Notes: generated by a model not told the origin, from the sequence alone. DNA of 64,000 bases from an uncultured Calditrichota bacterium (GCA_964489835.1 CAZBBC010000013.1:3578-67577); one strand, 5' to 3'; positions 3,970-64,000 are shown, counted from the stretch's first letter. Numbers and translations: made by a program.

Positions 3970-5406
3970 ATGTCATCAATAATTTCTTTTATACTCGACG
4001 ACAAAGTCACATCGATTGATTTTAGTCAGAATCAGCAATACTCCCCGACAACGACTGTATTGAATTACTTGCGGAGTCTCCCGAACCACAAAGGAACAAA
4101 AGAAGGATGTGCGGAGGGGGATTGTGGTGCTTGTACGGTGGTACTTGCCGGACAGGGAAAAAATAATACGATCAATTACAAAACCGTCGATTCCTGTTTG
4201 CTATTTTTACCAATGATTCACGGAAAACAATTGATTACCATTGAAAACTTAAAATCTCCGGAGGGAGAACCACATCCCGTTCAACAGGCTATGGTAGAAA
4301 AGAATGCCAGTCAGTGCGGATTTTGTACACCCGGGATTGTTATGTCTTTATTTGGTCTCTATAAAAACAGAAATAAACCTTCCGTAACGCAAATCGAAGA
4401 GGCCTTGGCCGGAAATTTATGCCGGTGTACCGGTTATCAAGCCATCATTGAAGCCGCAGAATCCTCCTGTATCCATCGGGGTATCGATCATTTTACACAT
4501 GCTGAGGCTGGTACCCTTAAACGTCTTGCAGAGATTAAATCTCGTTCTCTCACTATTGAGGCTAAAAAGCAAAAGTATTATCGACCCATTTCTCTGCCTG
4601 AAGCTCTGCTTCTTAGAAAGAAATACCCGTCCGCCTTCATCCTTAACGGTGCAACAGACTTAGCCCTCAAAGTAACAAAAAATCACGATTCCTTATCTGA
4701 AATCATTGATCTGTCCGCTATCACCGGCCTGACCGGCATCAGAACGATGAAAAATTATACGATATTCGGTGCCGGAACCTCCCTTGAAGACATAAAGTCA
4801 TATTCAAAAAATCGCTTTCCCGCTCTGCATAATATGCTGACTGTTTTTGGATCGCTCCAGATTCGAAATTTTGCAACCCTGGGAGGCAACCTGGGCAGCG
4901 CCTCGCCGATTGGTGATAGCGCGCCTGTTTTAAGTGCCTATAATGCGCGTATTGAATTGCGAAGCAGGGATAGAAAACGGAGAGTAACCGTCGATGACTT
5001 TATCACCGGTTACCGTAAGACGCTTTGTCAAGCCGATGAATTAATTACCGCCATTGAAATTCCCGAAGCCAGGTCCGATGCCCCGGTTCATTTTTATAAA
5101 TTCTCCAAACGTCATGACCTGGATATTTCCACCACCAGTGGTGGATTCCGGCTGGAAACAGACAAACACGCCCGGGTAAAATCAATCAAACTGGTGTTTG
5201 GGGGATTAGCCGATCGGACAAAAAGAGCGATAAGGACAGAAAAATTTTTAACGGGAAAAGATTGGAATCGTGAAAATATTGAAGCAACATTTCCAATTCT
5301 TGAAAAAGAGTTTCTACCCATCTCAGATGCACGGGCCAGTGCCGAGGGCCGGAAGCTAGCTGCAAAAAATTTGTTGTTAAAATTTTGGTATGATACAACA
5401 CTATGA
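3970..5406 (+). CDS. xdhA: Xanthine dehydrogenase small subunit (two 2Fe-2S clusters and FAD)
   Basis: GTKEGCAEGDCGAC, QCGFCTPG and GNLCRCTGY motifs; FAD-domain QIRNFATLGGN, SPIGD and KFSKRHDLDIS. Confidence 0.93.
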   Translation: MSSIISFILDDKVTSIDFSQNQQYSPTTTVLNYLRSLPNHKGTKEGCAEGDCGACTVVLAGQGKNNTINYKTVDSCLLFLPMIHGKQLITIENLKSPEGEPHPVQQAMVEKNASQCGFCTPGIVMSLFGLYKNRNKPSVTQIEEALAGNLCRCTGYQAIIEAAESSCIHRGIDHFTHAEAGTLKRLAEIKSRSLTIEAKKQKYYRPISLPEALLLRKKYPSAFILNGATDLALKVTKNHDSLSEIIDLSAITGLTGIRTMKNYTIFGAGTSLEDIKSYSKNRFPALHNMLTVFGSLQIRNFATLGGNLGSASPIGDSAPVLSAYNARIELRSRDRKRRVTVDDFITGYRKTLCQADELITAIEIPEARSDAPVHFYKFSKRHDLDISTTSGGFRLETDKHARVKSIKLVFGGLADRTKRAIRTEKFLTGKDWNRENIEATFPILEKEFLPISDARASAEGRKLAAKNLLLKFWYDTTL

Positions 5407-58269: not shown

Positions 58270-58336
58270 TCATTGCAAGACATGAATTATCAAAACGAAT
58301 TTTTTGAAATTGTAACATGGAACTTGGTTATAAATG

Positions 58337-58370
58337 AAAAATCCCAAATTGTTACGAGGCAATTTGGGAT
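58337..58370 (-). terminator. Intrinsic terminator after the DUF456 gene
   Basis: Perfect 11-bp stem ATCCCAAATTG-N8-CAATTTGGGAT (58341-58370) with a T-run on the minus strand. Confidence 0.75.
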
Positions 58371-58394
58371 CATTTTTTTATGTAGGTTTGCAAT

Positions 58395-58901: not shown

Positions 58902-59627
58902 CTACTTACTCAGACGGCTGGTAGCAAAAGAATATCTCTTTGATTTACTATCCAACCCAAGATTGTTCAGCTCGTTTCTTACATAAAACCATCCGACTTT
59001 CATAAAACCATATTTCGCAGAATTTAATTCCTTTTTAATCTTATAGGCACCATATTCGGGATTTTCGCGTACAATTTTGCTTATTCGTTCTCCCAGAGAC
59101 ATCTCTGAAATTGGTTTTTCTTCAATCTTTTGTGGTTCTTCCCCTTGTATACCGGAGGACGCTTCCATTGTCTCTACAACGGCTTCCTCTCTTCTGATCT
59201 CCACAGGTGCTGGTTCCGGTTTTGGTTTATTAAGGCTTATTTCCTTTGCCACGGGTTTTCCGGACGATTCCAGAACCTCAAATTTATTTATAGCCTCATC
59301 AACCGAATCATATACATCAAGAATATGATGAAATTCAAGTAATTCAAAAATTTCATATACATCGGGGACCATTCGTACTAATTTAAGATCTCCACCGTTT
59401 TCCCTGATAGATTTAATTTCACTGATAAATATTCCCCAGCCGGCGCTACTGATATAATCTACATTACCAAGATCGACGATCAGAAAGAAACGACCCTGTT
59501 TCAGAAGTGAATCTAAAGATCGCTCCAGTTCCGAAGACGTTGTTGTGTCAATATATCCGCCCACCTTAATAATTGAGATTTGATTCCGACTACCCGCTAC
59601 TTCCGCTGATACCTGAATACCTTCCAT
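58902..59627 (-). CDS. STAS anti-sigma factor antagonist with C-terminal HTH-like domain
   Basis: STAS motifs VGGYID, VDYISSAGWG and GGDLKL; Pro/Glu linker; tail ENPEYGAYKIKKEL; RBS GGGAGG. Confidence 0.88.
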   Translation of the reverse strand: MEGIQVSAEVAGSRNQISIIKVGGYIDTTTSSELERSLDSLLKQGRFFLIVDLGNVDYISSAGWGIFISEIKSIRENGGDLKLVRMVPDVYEIFELLEFHHILDVYDSVDEAINKFEVLESSGKPVAKEISLNKPKPEPAPVEIRREEAVVETMEASSGIQGEEPQKIEEKPISEMSLGERISKIVRENPEYGAYKIKKELNSAKYGFMKVGWFYVRNELNNLGLDSKSKRYSFATSRLSK

Positions 59628-59656: not shown

Positions 59657-62600
59657 CTAATGTCTGTTGTTTGTTTTTGCTATATTATTCAGTATTTTCC
59701 CTTTTTTTATCACTTTCTTATCTGCAATTTTTCGTCTGACAGATTCTAATTGCGAATTTTTATCCGGCTTTTTTCTGGTTATTTGTTCCCTTAATTGATG
59801 GTTTTTTATGCCGAGTTCATTGATCTGCTCCAGAATAATGCTTGAATTGCTTAATATATTTTCTTTTTCAATGTATTTCAACATATCTTTCGTATTTTGC
59901 GAAATCATTTTTTCCTCAAAATTTACAGCATTGGTTTCCATGAATTCCAAATACCGGATAACCTGTACAAATAATTGCTCTACGCGACCCAGAGATTTAA
60001 ACAGGGGTTTGGTCGATATCACACCAAGAATTTTTCCTATTTTCAATAAATCAATTTTTTTAAAACCACCATTCGACCATTCTTTTACAATCTTATTCAA
60101 CTCTTTCATATCACCGGAAATTGAAAAATAGAATTTGTCTATTATATCTATAGGAACTTTTTCCTCCGGCAAATCAAAGGAAGAGATTTGTGTTTTTTCC
60201 TCTATGGCTTCATTGGTCTTTTCTTTTACAGCTATGGACGGAGGTGGTTTAAGTTCAGGTCCATCTATTTGTTTATCCGCTAATTGTATTTCCGGGATCT
60301 CTTCATTTTCTATCTTTTCTTTTTCAAGATCTTTTCTTAGTGCTCTTGCTTCTTCCCGTAACTTTAAAAGATCGTCTGCAAACACCGGAGGTTCTGATGT
60401 TGTTTCCACTACTTTCTCTTTTGCAGATTTTTCCTTTTTTATCGGTTTTTCTTTAATTTTTTTCTGTTCAATTTTTTCTAACTCTGTCTCGGTTTCAGTT
60501 GGCCTTTTTGCTTCTTCAACCTTCGCTGTTTTAGAATCTTCTTTGAGGGCCTCTTTTGCCCTTACAATTGCTTCTGAAGTATCAACTTTTTCCTTTTCTC
60601 GGATTTCTTCATCTTCTTTAACAAACTCCTCAACCGGAGATTCAACAGGTACTTCCTCCTTGTCAACTTTTTCTTCCGTTACGTCTTTGCCACTTGAACT
60701 AAGCTGTCGCTCAGCTGTTTTCCGTTCGACAGCCGGAGCAACGCTTTTTACTAAATCATTCGAAACGGCAGCACCTCTTTTATCAGCAAACACCTTTTCC
60801 GCAGATTCATAATCGAGTATTACCTGTCCATCAAGTGTTAAAAGCGGCGTTCCCGGTGGTTTCAACCTTTTTTTACCACCACGCTTAATATGTCTTTCAC
60901 GTTTTTCACTGGTGTTCAGTTTTGCTTTCACTAGCTCATTATATATACGTCTGGGTTCTAAATTAGTATTCCCGTACTTTACTGTCTTTAATTCCTGACT
61001 GATACGTTTGGGACCCCATTTAGGATGGTTAAAAATAACATCGTATAATTTGGTTTTTATCTCTATACTCAGATGCTTTTTCTCGATATAATCGGTTTCG
61101 TAAAGAAGTTCTTTAAGACCTTCCAAACCGACTGAATCTTTAACTTTTTTATATTTACGATACATGTAAGGAGAAACCAGCATTTTCTCGCAGGCTTCTT
61201 TTACCGGTACCTTTTCTTCCTCTATCATACGGAAAAGTTCTTTATGAATGGTAAAAATTACCTCACCTTGCATCAGTTTTTCTTTCACTGCAACAAAGGT
61301 AATATCATCATTTTGCGGATAGTTCTGGGTGTGGGATTTTATATCTTCTTTAATATTATTAATGAAATCGCTGACATCAATATGAGCATTTCTGCGAATA
61401 GCATCCAAAAAGCGTTCTTCCCGATATAATTCTCGTTTCGGATTCATGGCCTCCGTAATGCCATCAGTATAGAGAACAAGCAAATCATCTTCGCGAAGGC
61501 GAATTGAATCCTGTTCAATTCTTTCCTCAAACAATGAAATATCAGGCAATTGAATGCCAACCGGGAAACCGGATGGATTTAAAAAATAAGTTTGTTTCGT
61601 ACTACCCCGGTATAATATCATCGGATTATGGCCGGCACTGGCATAATGAATCACTCGGTTCCGACTGTCAAGTACCAGATAAAACATGGTGACAAACATC
61701 CCCCGCTTCATGTCATCCGTGACAAATCTGTTAACTTTGGCTAATACCTCCGCAGGATTTTTATTTCCCCTTGCTTCCAAACGCAGAGCCGTTCGGATCA
61801 TTGTCATAATCAGCGATCCCGGCACTCCTTTTCCGGCTACATCGGCCACACAAATACCAAGTGTATCCTCATCAACTTCCACAAAATCAAACAAATCGCC
61901 GCCAACCTCTTTGGCTGCTTCATAATACGATGCCAGAGCGTATCCTTTGACCTGTGGAAAATCACTGGGTAAAAGCATTTGTTGAATTTCCTGAGCGACC
62001 TGCAATTCTTTTTGCAGACGTTGCTGCTCAATAACACTGACCTGAGCCTCCCGGAATTTACTGGTCATTTGGTTGAATGCCTGGGCAATCTCACCCAGCT
62101 CATCGGAAGAATCGATATCGATCTCATCCTCATCAACCGTTCCCTGCCCAACCTGGCGCACCCAATCAGCAAGGGAATGGAAAGGGGCAACGATGCGATC
62201 AATTAGAAAATAAGCGCCCACAAAACTTATAATGAGTAAAACCAAGACAAAAATGATGATATTAAGTTTTTCAGAACCGGCCTTGGATTTAATATAATCA
62301 TTAGGTACCCAGATATGGGCCCGGCCAATGAGAGGACTTTCCGCCCGGGGATCCGCATAAATATCTGCCACAAAATCATACACATCCGATGTGTCTCTCG
62401 ACATATAACGATAAATCCTGAAATTGCCGATGGAATCCTCGATGGTCACTCTCTCCACCGGATAAGTATAGATTCCCAAAGCTTTACTTGCGGTACTGCT
62501 GGCAAAAATTTTAGCACTCGTATCGACGATAAAGACTTCCTTTATTAACCCTGGATTATTATGTCTTAAATCCTGAGCAATAGTAAAACAGGCCAGATCC

Positions 62601-63244
62601 TCGTCAGCTTGCAGCAGCTCAGAACTGTTATCGGCCAGTGATAGGACTTGTGCCCGTGTGTATTCTGTGGTTTCATCCAGCGTATCCTGATCGATTTTCG
62701 AATAAAGCAGAAAGAAAATTACCGCTGCCATTATTGATATAATTGCAGCCGCACGCATAGTATATCGCGTACGCATGGAAAGATTTTCCCACAACGCCCG
62801 TGTTTGCGATAAATCACTTTCATCTCTTTGCTTTGTTAAGCGTAACTCATTTCCGCGACCGGTGATATTATACTGGACATCATCCATTAATTTACGCATC
62901 ATGAAAATGCCAAGACCACCCTTTTTTCCGATTTGAATGTACTTTTCCAAATCCGGAGTCTGCGCCTGGCGGGGATCATAACTCAGTCCCTGGTCAATAA
63001 TTACAATGGTTAAACTCTGCTGGCGAATAATCGCCTTTATCGAAATTTCACCCCCCTTGACATCACGATAACCATGGCGGATAATATTCGTACAGGCTTC
63101 CTCAATAACCAGCTTATAGGAATTGATAATCTTATCGGAATACCTGTATTTTACCCCGATATGTTCAATAAAGTCGCGAACCTGGCCCATATAACTCATC
63201 TGGGCCGGTATGGTAATCTCTTCTTTTTTAACGTTTCTGAACAT
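59657..63244 (-). CDS. Membrane-bound RsbW-type kinase, sensor, HAMP, SpoIIE/PP2C phosphatase, HTH-like domains, acidic linker and helical C-terminal domain
   Basis: Kinase motifs EEACTNIIRHG, DQG and GGLG; two TMs; HAMP DELGEIAQAFNQM; PP2C motifs GGDLFD, ADVAGKG, AGH, YTDG and DDIT; then HPKWGPKRISQEL. Confidence 0.88.
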   Translation of the reverse strand: MFRNVKKEEITIPAQMSYMGQVRDFIEHIGVKYRYSDKIINSYKLVIEEACTNIIRHGYRDVKGGEISIKAIIRQQSLTIVIIDQGLSYDPRQAQTPDLEKYIQIGKKGGLGIFMMRKLMDDVQYNITGRGNELRLTKQRDESDLSQTRALWENLSMRTRYTMRAAAIISIMAAVIFFLLYSKIDQDTLDETTEYTRAQVLSLADNSSELLQADEDLACFTIAQDLRHNNPGLIKEVFIVDTSAKIFASSTASKALGIYTYPVERVTIEDSIGNFRIYRYMSRDTSDVYDFVADIYADPRAESPLIGRAHIWVPNDYIKSKAGSEKLNIIIFVLVLLIISFVGAYFLIDRIVAPFHSLADWVRQVGQGTVDEDEIDIDSSDELGEIAQAFNQMTSKFREAQVSVIEQQRLQKELQVAQEIQQMLLPSDFPQVKGYALASYYEAAKEVGGDLFDFVEVDEDTLGICVADVAGKGVPGSLIMTMIRTALRLEARGNKNPAEVLAKVNRFVTDDMKRGMFVTMFYLVLDSRNRVIHYASAGHNPMILYRGSTKQTYFLNPSGFPVGIQLPDISLFEERIEQDSIRLREDDLLVLYTDGITEAMNPKRELYREERFLDAIRRNAHIDVSDFINNIKEDIKSHTQNYPQNDDITFVAVKEKLMQGEVIFTIHKELFRMIEEEKVPVKEACEKMLVSPYMYRKYKKVKDSVGLEGLKELLYETDYIEKKHLSIEIKTKLYDVIFNHPKWGPKRISQELKTVKYGNTNLEPRRIYNELVKAKLNTSEKRERHIKRGGKKRLKPPGTPLLTLDGQVILDYESAEKVFADKRGAAVSNDLVKSVAPAVERKTAERQLSSSGKDVTEEKVDKEEVPVESPVEEFVKEDEEIREKEKVDTSEAIVRAKEALKEDSKTAKVEEAKRPTETETELEKIEQKKIKEKPIKKEKSAKEKVVETTSEPPVFADDLLKLREEARALRKDLEKEKIENEEIPEIQLADKQIDGPELKPPPSIAVKEKTNEAIEEKTQISSFDLPEEKVPIDIIDKFYFSISGDMKELNKIVKEWSNGGFKKIDLLKIGKILGVISTKPLFKSLGRVEQLFVQVIRYLEFMETNAVNFEEKMISQNTKDMLKYIEKENILSNSSIILEQINELGIKNHQLREQITRKKPDKNSQLESVRRKIADKKVIKKGKILNNIAKTNNRH

Positions 63245-63247
63245 ACA

Positions 63248-64000
63248 TCAATCCTGTTGAGATTCTTTCCGTTTAATACGTTCCCGGGCGCCGTTTATGG
63301 CTTCCAGTACTTTTTTATTATACGGATGGTCCTTTATGATGGCATCCCAGATATTAATTGCCTCCGTATACTTACCCAGGAGAAATTTTTCAACCCCCAG
63401 TAAGTATTGGCGTTCTGTTTCCGGGTCCATCGGTTCTGTGTCTGCCAGTGCTTCTATTTTTGAACGTGTATAATATTGCTTAATGAACTGGTTTTCCGGC
63501 TCCTGGTTGAGTACTTCTTCAAAAATTCCTAACGCCTGATCATATTGTCCAATATCATACAACATAAGACCTTGTTGTATACTTTCCTGTAATTTAACTC
63601 TTCCAACCAGAGTGTCAACCTCTTTTTTTACCTGGGGATCATCGATGGCCAGAATTCGCGCTTCCGAAAATAAGCGCAACGCCTCAGAATAATTCTGGCT
63701 TTTCATTTCCTCCCTGCCTCTGCGCATAAGGGCATTCAGGTCTTCACTAAGCCGGCGCCTGGTGGTCCTGATAGCCGAACGGACTTGCTGATTTTCCGAA
63801 TCACGCTGCTGGGCAAGATTAAACTGTATCAACGCTTCTGTATATTGCTTTTTATCCAGATATCGCCGGCCCTGTTCAAAATGTTCATTGAGAAATCGGA
63901 TATCTGCTTCTGCCCGGTCTTTATCTAAAGCATCTTTTACAGCCAAATCCTGTTGGGTCTGAAATTCACCTGCCAGCTGTGTATTCGCCGAATCTAACAT
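63248..64000 (-). CDS. TPR-repeat protein, C-terminal part (probably truncated by the window end)
   Basis: Repeated TPR helices (GRRYLDKKQYTEAL, GLMLYDIGQYDQAL, GVEKFLLGKYTEAI); the ORF runs to the window edge. Confidence 0.8.
   Translation of the reverse strand: MLDSANTQLAGEFQTQQDLAVKDALDKDRAEADIRFLNEHFEQGRRYLDKKQYTEALIQFNLAQQRDSENQQVRSAIRTTRRRLSEDLNALMRRGREEMKSQNYSEALRLFSEARILAIDDPQVKKEVDTLVGRVKLQESIQQGLMLYDIGQYDQALGIFEEVLNQEPENQFIKQYYTRSKIEALADTEPMDPETERQYLLGVEKFLLGKYTEAINIWDAIIKDHPYNKKVLEAINGARERIKRKESQQD

Follow-up and report, generated by a model that had tools for sequence, protein, structure and literature searches.

An IS481-like tandem helix-turn-helix module kept within a modified partner-switch sensor of Calditrichota

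DNA-binding domains of DDE transposases that were domesticated into host regulators are well known in eukaryotes, and the paired domain of PAX proteins is of transposase origin. CENP-B, SETMAR and the transposase-capture fusions are said to be further eukaryotic domesticated domains of this kind. In bacteria, the cases of domestication that we found reportedly concern the RNA-guided TnpB/IS110 proteins, and TldR proteins are said to be TnpB-derived repressors, an insertion-sequence protein having been domesticated for regulation. The module described here would resemble CENP-B, SETMAR and PAX as a tandem helix-turn-helix (HTH) DNA-binding domain of a transposase kept in a host protein. Unlike these it is bacterial, of IS481 type and fused to a membrane signalling enzyme, and its binding site was not found here; unlike the RNA-guided, nuclease-dead TldR, it corresponds to the HTH of a DDE transposase. 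In PMC11754664 the PAX paired domain is described as similar to the PAI domain of SB, and for the N-termini of IS481EU just weak HTH similarity is reported in PMC10045372.

Two bacterial serine-kinase systems were compared with the locus. According to PMC13373217, CapK is a soluble HTH-STAS-GHKL protein, activated by ssDNA and encoded beside immune operons, and its partner CapS, a STAS protein with a winged HTH, binds DNA and is released by phosphorylation. The present locus is alike in having an anti-sigma-like GHKL kinase beside a STAS protein with a C-terminal domain of DNA-binding type, the kinase protein also carrying an HTH; unlike the system described there, its kinase is a membrane protein fused to HAMP and PP2C domains, its HTH is IS481-like and its neighbours are surface-protein and polysaccharide genes. 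The second system is SypE/SypA of Vibrio fischeri (PMC8256260), in which, as here, a serine kinase and a phosphatase are joined in one chain, the STAS protein belongs to a polysaccharide locus and no sigma target is known. SypA is a STAS domain only and SypE is called a response regulator, whereas here the input is periplasmic-HAMP and sensor and STAS proteins both carry HTH modules.

The DNA analysed, called the window below, is a stretch of 64,000 nucleotides from an uncultured Calditrichota bacterium (genome G000). It encodes a membrane sensor, P0001, in which an RsbW-type kinase, a transmembrane (TM) helix, a periplasmic domain, a second TM helix, HAMP, PP2C, the tandem HTH module, an acidic linker and a C-terminal region follow one another:

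59657..63244, minus strand, open reading frame of P0001, a membrane sensor of 1195 aa
62831..63211, minus strand, RsbW/SpoIIAB-type GHKL serine kinase domain (aa 12-138; Pfam HATPase_c_2, E 8e-28)
62180..62764, minus strand, two predicted TM helices around the periplasmic domain (aa ~161-185 and ~321-355; hydropathy)
62057..62209, minus strand, HAMP domain (aa 346-396; Pfam, E 2e-10)
61283..61903, minus strand, SpoIIE/PP2C phosphatase (aa 448-654; Pfam SpoIIE at aa 459-654, E 2.5e-50)
61094..61270, minus strand, HTH1 of the IS481-like module (aa ~659-717; NF033577 match and AlphaFold model)
60884..61066, minus strand, HTH2 (aa ~727-773) with an extra C-terminal helix (aa ~779-787)
60827..60856, minus strand, conserved short motif behind the module (aa 797-806; in 38/62 sensor tails)
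60200..60802, minus strand, Glu/Lys-rich low-complexity linker (37.5% E+K; 10% mean identity)

The N-box and G-box of the kinase were located, and all four Asp-bearing motifs of the PP2C domain were found, in columns that are invariant in alignment A2. No receiver domain was matched in P0001 by Pfam, the input being TM-periplasmic-HAMP.

A preliminary description of this DNA had placed an IS481-type transposase N-terminus directly after the PP2C domain and had called it an old domestication. We found the transposase-like residues at 61243-60890 of the minus strand, within the ORF 63244-59657 and in its frame, and, as also claimed, its 1195 aa show no frame break; the wording "directly" has to be corrected, since PP2C ends at residue 654 and the quoted stretch starts at residue 670, with 15 residues in between. 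The IS481 assignment held, the segment matching the NF033577 IS481 transposase model with E 3.6e-10. Residues ~659-787 of P0001 cover positions 4-116 of the 284 of this model, and with the 142-aa segment alone NF033577 was the sole NCBIfam family matched (39.8 bits; the family cut-off is 224). All 22 orthologues of alignment A1 match it as well; other transposase models are also matched (IS3 17/22, ISNCY 12/22, IS630 5/22), and in the distant fragment P0202 IS630 scores slightly above IS481. For the Pfam families HTH_28, HTH_29 and HTH_32, suggested earlier as a check, nothing was obtained with the window's own sequence at E<=1, whereas the A1 orthologues do match at this threshold (HTH_23 and HTH_Tnp_1 17/22 each, HTH_32 16/22, HTH_28 11/22, HTH_29 10/22). 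Profile similarity to transposase HTHs is thus provided by NCBIfam and by the orthologues' Pfam matches.

The absence of a catalytic core and of insertion-sequence ends, likewise proposed beforehand, was also observed. P0001 has no rve/DDE match in Pfam or NCBIfam and reaches 35-40 bits with the IS481 model. No long inverted repeat flanks the segment, and no pair of TGT...ACA-type terminal inverted repeats, with ends as in the relatives, was found around it; the sole inverted-repeat pair there (15 nt, 87% match) lies inside coding sequence. Compared with the IS481 transposase N-terminus (NF033577; Pfam HTH_28/HTH_32), the module is alike in tandem HTH layout and sequence, and in one subgroup also in the extra helix; it differs in the missing DDE core and terminal inverted repeats, in its inheritance with PP2C and in an HTH2 loop that is 2-3 residues longer than in IS481 transposases.

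In a search of 1.84 billion protein representatives, we obtained 117 matches, the majority being PP2C fusions; a complete IS481 transposase, P0221, was reached with E 1.3e-5 (rve present, above the NF033577 cut-off). A profile of A1 finds two further full IS481 transposases in Calditrichota genomes. Atlas matches were all below 0.9, with HTH_23/28/29/32 clusters predominant, a PDB sequence search returned designed-repeat artefacts and one HTH match (E 0.08), and tblastn of an orthologue against plasmids gave matches with E>=0.1 only, the best of them annotated IS481. The AlphaFold model of the module (pLDDT 86, pTM 0.51) shows two three-helix HTH units and the further short helix, the three helices of HTH1 being predicted in this way. 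With this model, Foldseek gave nothing at E<=0.001, its top rows being TnsB and PAX paired domains, with PAX5/6 and SETMAR domains among the weak rows, and a VIA structure search gave nothing at Z>=8. Among the VIA matches listed, only the DNA-binding domains of MuA, TnsB and Tc3 cover both halves (Z 6.2, 5.1 and 5.1; rmsd 10-13 A). The predicted structure is consistent with a transposase DNA-binding fold, and this support is weak.

We then surveyed the Calditrichota genomes that are at least 80% complete. The A1 profile found a full-length module in 74 of these 78 genomes (one of the 74 being listed with TAG), with one full copy per genome; in the other four the module is frameshifted, split over two contigs, present as a STAS copy only, or missing. 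A single-sequence search had matched it in 39/41 related genomes, one of them via the STAS copy only, so the segment is kept in close relatives. Among the matches listed, 80 GTDB loci were compared: the module stands right behind the PP2C domain in 16/16 loci with a PP2C of the same clade and in 0/64 with other PP2Cs. The sensor clade also occurs in genomes that their depositors labelled Latescibacterota, Eisenbacteria, Omnitrophota, KSB1, FCPU426, Ignavibacteria and Zixiibacteriota, and in one titled Bacteroidota. Mean identity to the window over 15 Calditrichota loci was 47% for HTH1, 59% for HTH2, 78% for PP2C, 31% for the variable periplasmic domain and 10% for the linker; for other phyla, represented by six loci of which one is titled Calditrichota, the values were 36, 43, 63, 18 and 7%. 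In eight pairs of orthologues the dN of the module (0.14-0.29) was far below dS (1.81 in one pair, saturated in seven), whereas the dN of the linker was 0.5-1.2. Distances of the PP2C and HTH parts correlate (Mantel rho 0.80, 54 proteins, 0/999 permutations as high). In its orthologous position the module is fixed and immobile; it is subject to purifying selection and co-inherited with the PP2C domain, which, with its spread over several phyla, bears out the claim that it is old.

HTH2 occurs a second and a third time in this genome, on STAS proteins:

58902..59627, minus strand, P0002, a STAS protein of 241 aa with a C-terminal HTH2, the next gene after the sensor
59445..59447, minus strand, Ser61 of P0002, predicted STAS phospho-acceptor, invariant in 18/18 aligned STAS proteins
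58935..59099, minus strand, HTH2 copy on P0002 (aa 177-231), which has a terminal helix and a loop insert of the sensor type
4190-5002 of locus L002 (G000:C63), second STAS-HTH2 paralog, between a sugar transferase gene and a polysaccharide-export-like gene

The HTH2 in the neighbouring gene, already pointed out in the preliminary description, was confirmed by alignment to that of the sensor (28% over 64 aa, E 1e-5) and by a profile (E 1.3e-12). Ser61 is presumably equivalent to S58 of SpoIIAA and S56 of RsbV. P0002 is likely the substrate of the sensor, a choice that we infer, as in the likeness to SypE/SypA. Among clustered STAS neighbours, 19/23 carry HTH2; of the other four, two belong to sensors with fused STAS domains and lack HTH2 and two look frameshifted, and in L040 and L043 two further STAS neighbours carry HTH2. 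A profile of 29 STAS tails scored the sensor HTH2s with a median of 50 bits and any transposase with at most 31, and the tails have the loop insert of the sensor's HTH2. Judged from these sequences, the STAS copies more likely descend from the sensor's HTH2 than from a second capture. The paralog is located in exopolysaccharide loci, with an export-like gene downstream in 32 of 33 loci read (34 were given; the labels are motif-based), and its HTH2 is nearer to that of the sensor than to that of any transposase.

The gene upstream of the sensor is cut by the end of the window:

63248..64000, minus strand, 3' part of the gene of a conserved protein (655 aa) that has TPRs and, at its N-terminus, a putative outer-membrane barrel

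Its TPR assignment is strong; UPF0164 (E 3e-5) and FadL-like (E 3e-4) matches were obtained in the orthologue L203 only. In L193-L207 we observed a conserved order of giant Ig-repeat protein, barrel-TPR protein, sensor and STAS-HTH2, the giant protein of the relatives having 4000-5600 aa and an FlgD-like end; the G000 contig stops just upstream of the barrel-TPR gene. In L038 and L048 the sensor gene is directly followed by a ParA-like ATPase gene. A 22-nt inverted repeat at 58330-58381 (82% complementary), just downstream of the window's DUF456 gene, is a possible terminator.

As judged by domains and motifs, three parts of an Rsb/SpoII partner switch are present, namely a GHKL kinase, a PP2C phosphatase and a STAS protein with the conserved serine. 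The periplasmic domain would read an envelope signal, probably tied to the giant secreted Ig-repeat protein and the barrel-TPR protein encoded upstream, and the signal, relayed via HAMP, would tip the balance between kinase and phosphatase action at the STAS serine. Phosphorylation may then alter how the STAS-HTH2 proteins dimerise or bind their partners and thereby their DNA binding, the two-HTH module of the sensor keeping the switch on or near its target DNA, so that the switch would act on DNA directly and not via a sigma factor. For the DNA-binding step of the STAS-HTH proteins, CapK/CapS (PMC13373217) provides a precedent, and for a dual enzyme that acts on the STAS protein of a polysaccharide locus, SypE/SypA does (PMC8256260). 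Our best model is a switch of the SypE/SypA type, its output likely being DNA binding by STAS-HTH proteins, as in CapS. We consider a DNA-binding output somewhat better than an even bet, given the IS481-type origin; the fuller reading, in which the tandem HTH captured behind the phosphatase likely still binds DNA with output via STAS-HTH, stands at even chances. Surface-protein and exopolysaccharide genes are likely targets because the STAS-HTH2 paralog sits in polysaccharide loci.

Several observations were counted against this model: HTH1 is less conserved than the enzyme domains (47% vs 78% within the phylum, as above), of the two halves of the bipartite module the STAS proteins carry HTH2 only, and in L038 and L039 the free STAS proteins have no HTH2. 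In these two loci the sensor carries three STAS domains behind its HTH module. A predicted complex of the sensor module with the STAS HTH2 scored 0.00 and was counted for neither side.

No operator was found either. We derived candidates from the insertion-sequence ends of the nearest transposases and rejected them, the end cores being enriched neither in the genome nor near the operons. The first core matched the genome 0/17/263 times when 0/1/2 mismatches were allowed, and its reversed control 0/24/322 times; one of its 9-mers was above expectation (72 vs 49), mostly within ORFs. The second gave 117 matches against 13 reversed, which fits the Markov expectation (67 vs 64-69; 50 vs 54-55), and it was not enriched in intergenic DNA. 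This failure favours a reading that is unlikely but to be taken seriously, namely that the IS481-derived module now serves protein-protein contact and docks the STAS protein, dimerises the sensor or binds a downstream enzyme, for instance a diguanylate cyclase or a polysaccharide export component. Enzyme and substrate both carry the same HTH2, as docking would have it, a GAF-GGDEF gene follows STAS-HTH2 in L048 and L052, the tail of the second STAS protein closes with a highly conserved aromatic/basic motif, and SypA, according to PMC8256260, acts on a target not yet known. Against docking, basic and aromatic residues of the recognition helix (S/Y/Y/K positions; module net charge 0 to +14) are kept across phyla, the closest two-domain fold matches among those listed by VIA are DNA-binding domains, and a kinase-switched STAS-wHTH repressor is an established design (PMC13373217).

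A conserved 14-nt motif upstream of polysaccharide genes, often behind a hairpin, was also noticed (G000:C63:6186-6199, G000:C249:3084-3097, L212-L241). It was found by pattern in 24/30 loci, and in 73/78 genomes with reversed controls often non-zero; it has no Rfam match. Its letters presumably resemble those of the E. coli ops element. One of the copies stands ahead of genes for a NusG paralog and a sugar-nucleotide enzyme; in this context we preferred an ops-like element to an HTH operator for the copy upstream of the polysaccharide-locus STAS gene, and the motif is likely a Calditrichota element of ops type (ops is described in PMC7593976).

DNA binding by the STAS-HTH proteins, which we prefer, would take the place of a sigma factor. 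It is improbable, in our view, that the locus is instead a classical partner switch in which the RsbW domain holds a sigma factor, the STAS protein frees it and the HTHs tether the complex to the nucleoid unspecifically. The RsbW, PP2C and STAS domains are canonical and highly conserved, as such a switch would have them, the genome has three RpoD-like sigma factors, one divergent and further short ones of ECF size, and a chlamydial partner switch reportedly targets the primary sigma factor. However, we recognised no SigB/SigF-like sigma in the genome, noticed no sigma gene among the recurrent neighbour families of 33 loci (their neighbours being partly annotated) and found no recognisable STAS/RsbW gene within 1.5 kb of any of the four region-3 sigmas, though the kinase might bind a sigma factor in trans. 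Moreover, this explanation leaves the copying of HTH2 onto two STAS proteins unaccounted for.

The origin of the module was then considered. A profile of 79 sensor modules, from which transposases were excluded, ranked the P0221 group top (70-92 bits), followed by other IS481 members (47-58) and then the rest; the top rank is biased because this group was found via the query. Among 38 transposase N-termini, the extra helix after HTH2 is common to the P0221 group, L028 and a five-member sister group (L118, L177, L178, L180, L182), and it is shared with the sensor. By their DDE cores, in a tree rooted on IS3-like sequences, these transposases form one clade (99/96) nested in IS481. The HTH tree comprised 72 rows (29 of the 79 sensor modules, the window's module, 33 of the 38 transposases after five near-duplicates were dropped, 8 glycosyltransferase modules and P0223). 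It shows the sensor modules as a single clade (100/99) that stands beside the P0221 group and L028 (95/76). With a mixture model on 56 rows, a set that left out long branches and close relatives, this grouping was kept (SH-aLRT 81).

The ML trees thus place the sensor clade beside an IS481 subgroup, and so within IS481, but nesting is not significant: in AU tests, trees in which the sensor modules stand apart from the IS481 core clade (p 0.138) or from the extended-helix subgroup (p 0.284) were not rejected. A third test, with all transposases on one side (p 0.448), says nothing on nesting and was set aside. Because non-nested trees are not rejected, capture from a transposase is parsimonious and not proven; of the earlier claim of domestication, old retention is established and the direction from transposase to host is a likely inference. 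The same tests, and the small number of columns available to the trees (128-130), speak for a quite improbable view without any domestication, in which the sensor, the CPR glycosyltransferase modules and the IS481 transposases took a paired-like HTH from a shared cellular pool or one IS481 subgroup took a host N-terminus. Two further observations lean the same way. A second non-transposase family carries the module: P0222, P0224, P0226 and P0230 have two tandem IS481-like modules at the N-terminus, followed in two of them by TM helices and a GT2 glycosyltransferase; one is labelled Candidatus Microgenomates, and in the HTH tree the GT2-fusion modules form their own clade (99/95). In addition, no catalytic remnant was detected in the sensor tails; the motif behind HTH2 was rejected as a relic of the first DDE strand (62/80 tails tested, hhalign probability 0.1%; 3/62 above the 95th percentile of shuffles), and a test of 21 tails was likewise unsupportive. 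On the other side, the module is the standard N-terminus across the sampled IS481/IS630/ISNCY-like transposases whereas just one PP2C clade has the sensor fusion, the nearest transposase subgroup is derived within IS481 by its DDE core, and no regulator family scores comparably with the A1 orthologues in NCBIfam. An origin from IS481-type transposases is held with good confidence; a single capture of an IS481-family N-terminus is likely, and in the GT2-type proteins the module was likely domesticated a second time.

A recent IS481 insertion or an assembly chimera with an in-frame passenger, suggested by orthologue fragments auto-annotated as transposase (P0121, P0241), is refuted by the conservation data and has next to no probability left, the module holding the same position and frame in 74/78 genomes and in other phyla, under purifying selection, without insertion-sequence ends and in a genome with no IS481 transposase at E<=1e-20 (full IS481 transposases above the cut-off were found in 3/86 genomes of the phylum).

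What stands is a real, old and selected IS481-like module within a modified partner-switch design. More tentatively, and at somewhat under even chances, an ancestor of Calditrichota and of neighbouring deep-branching phyla would have put the bipartite IS481 domain into a trans-envelope receptor and copied HTH2 onto STAS proteins, yielding sigma-free, phosphoserine-switched transcription factors for surface and exopolysaccharide genes, with a likely second capture in CPR glycosyltransferases. If true, this would be a bacterial counterpart of domestication of the PAX/CENP-B type, and a near phylum-wide, multi-phylum case within a receptor for signalling would broaden the principle to include bacteria. 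In the open full-text literature, searched by titles and abstract openings, no description of this fusion or of a domesticated IS481 HTH was found. For "orphan" STAS switches like SypA, the model proposes an output that can be tested, and domains of this kind cause false transposase labels in annotation.

Some orthologues depart from the common layout. In P0178 HTH1 is duplicated. Three orthologues of 1900-1990 aa (P0217, P0227, P0229) end in TPR arrays, and behind their PP2C domain no match to the full-length module was obtained; P0217 and P0227 match the HTH2 part only. L010 (G006), L197 (G004) and L199 (G001) each show what looks like a single frameshift, which affects the sensor module or the linker of the STAS-HTH2 protein and may be an assembly error. 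An orthologue is also present in a cultured host, Caldithrix abyssi.
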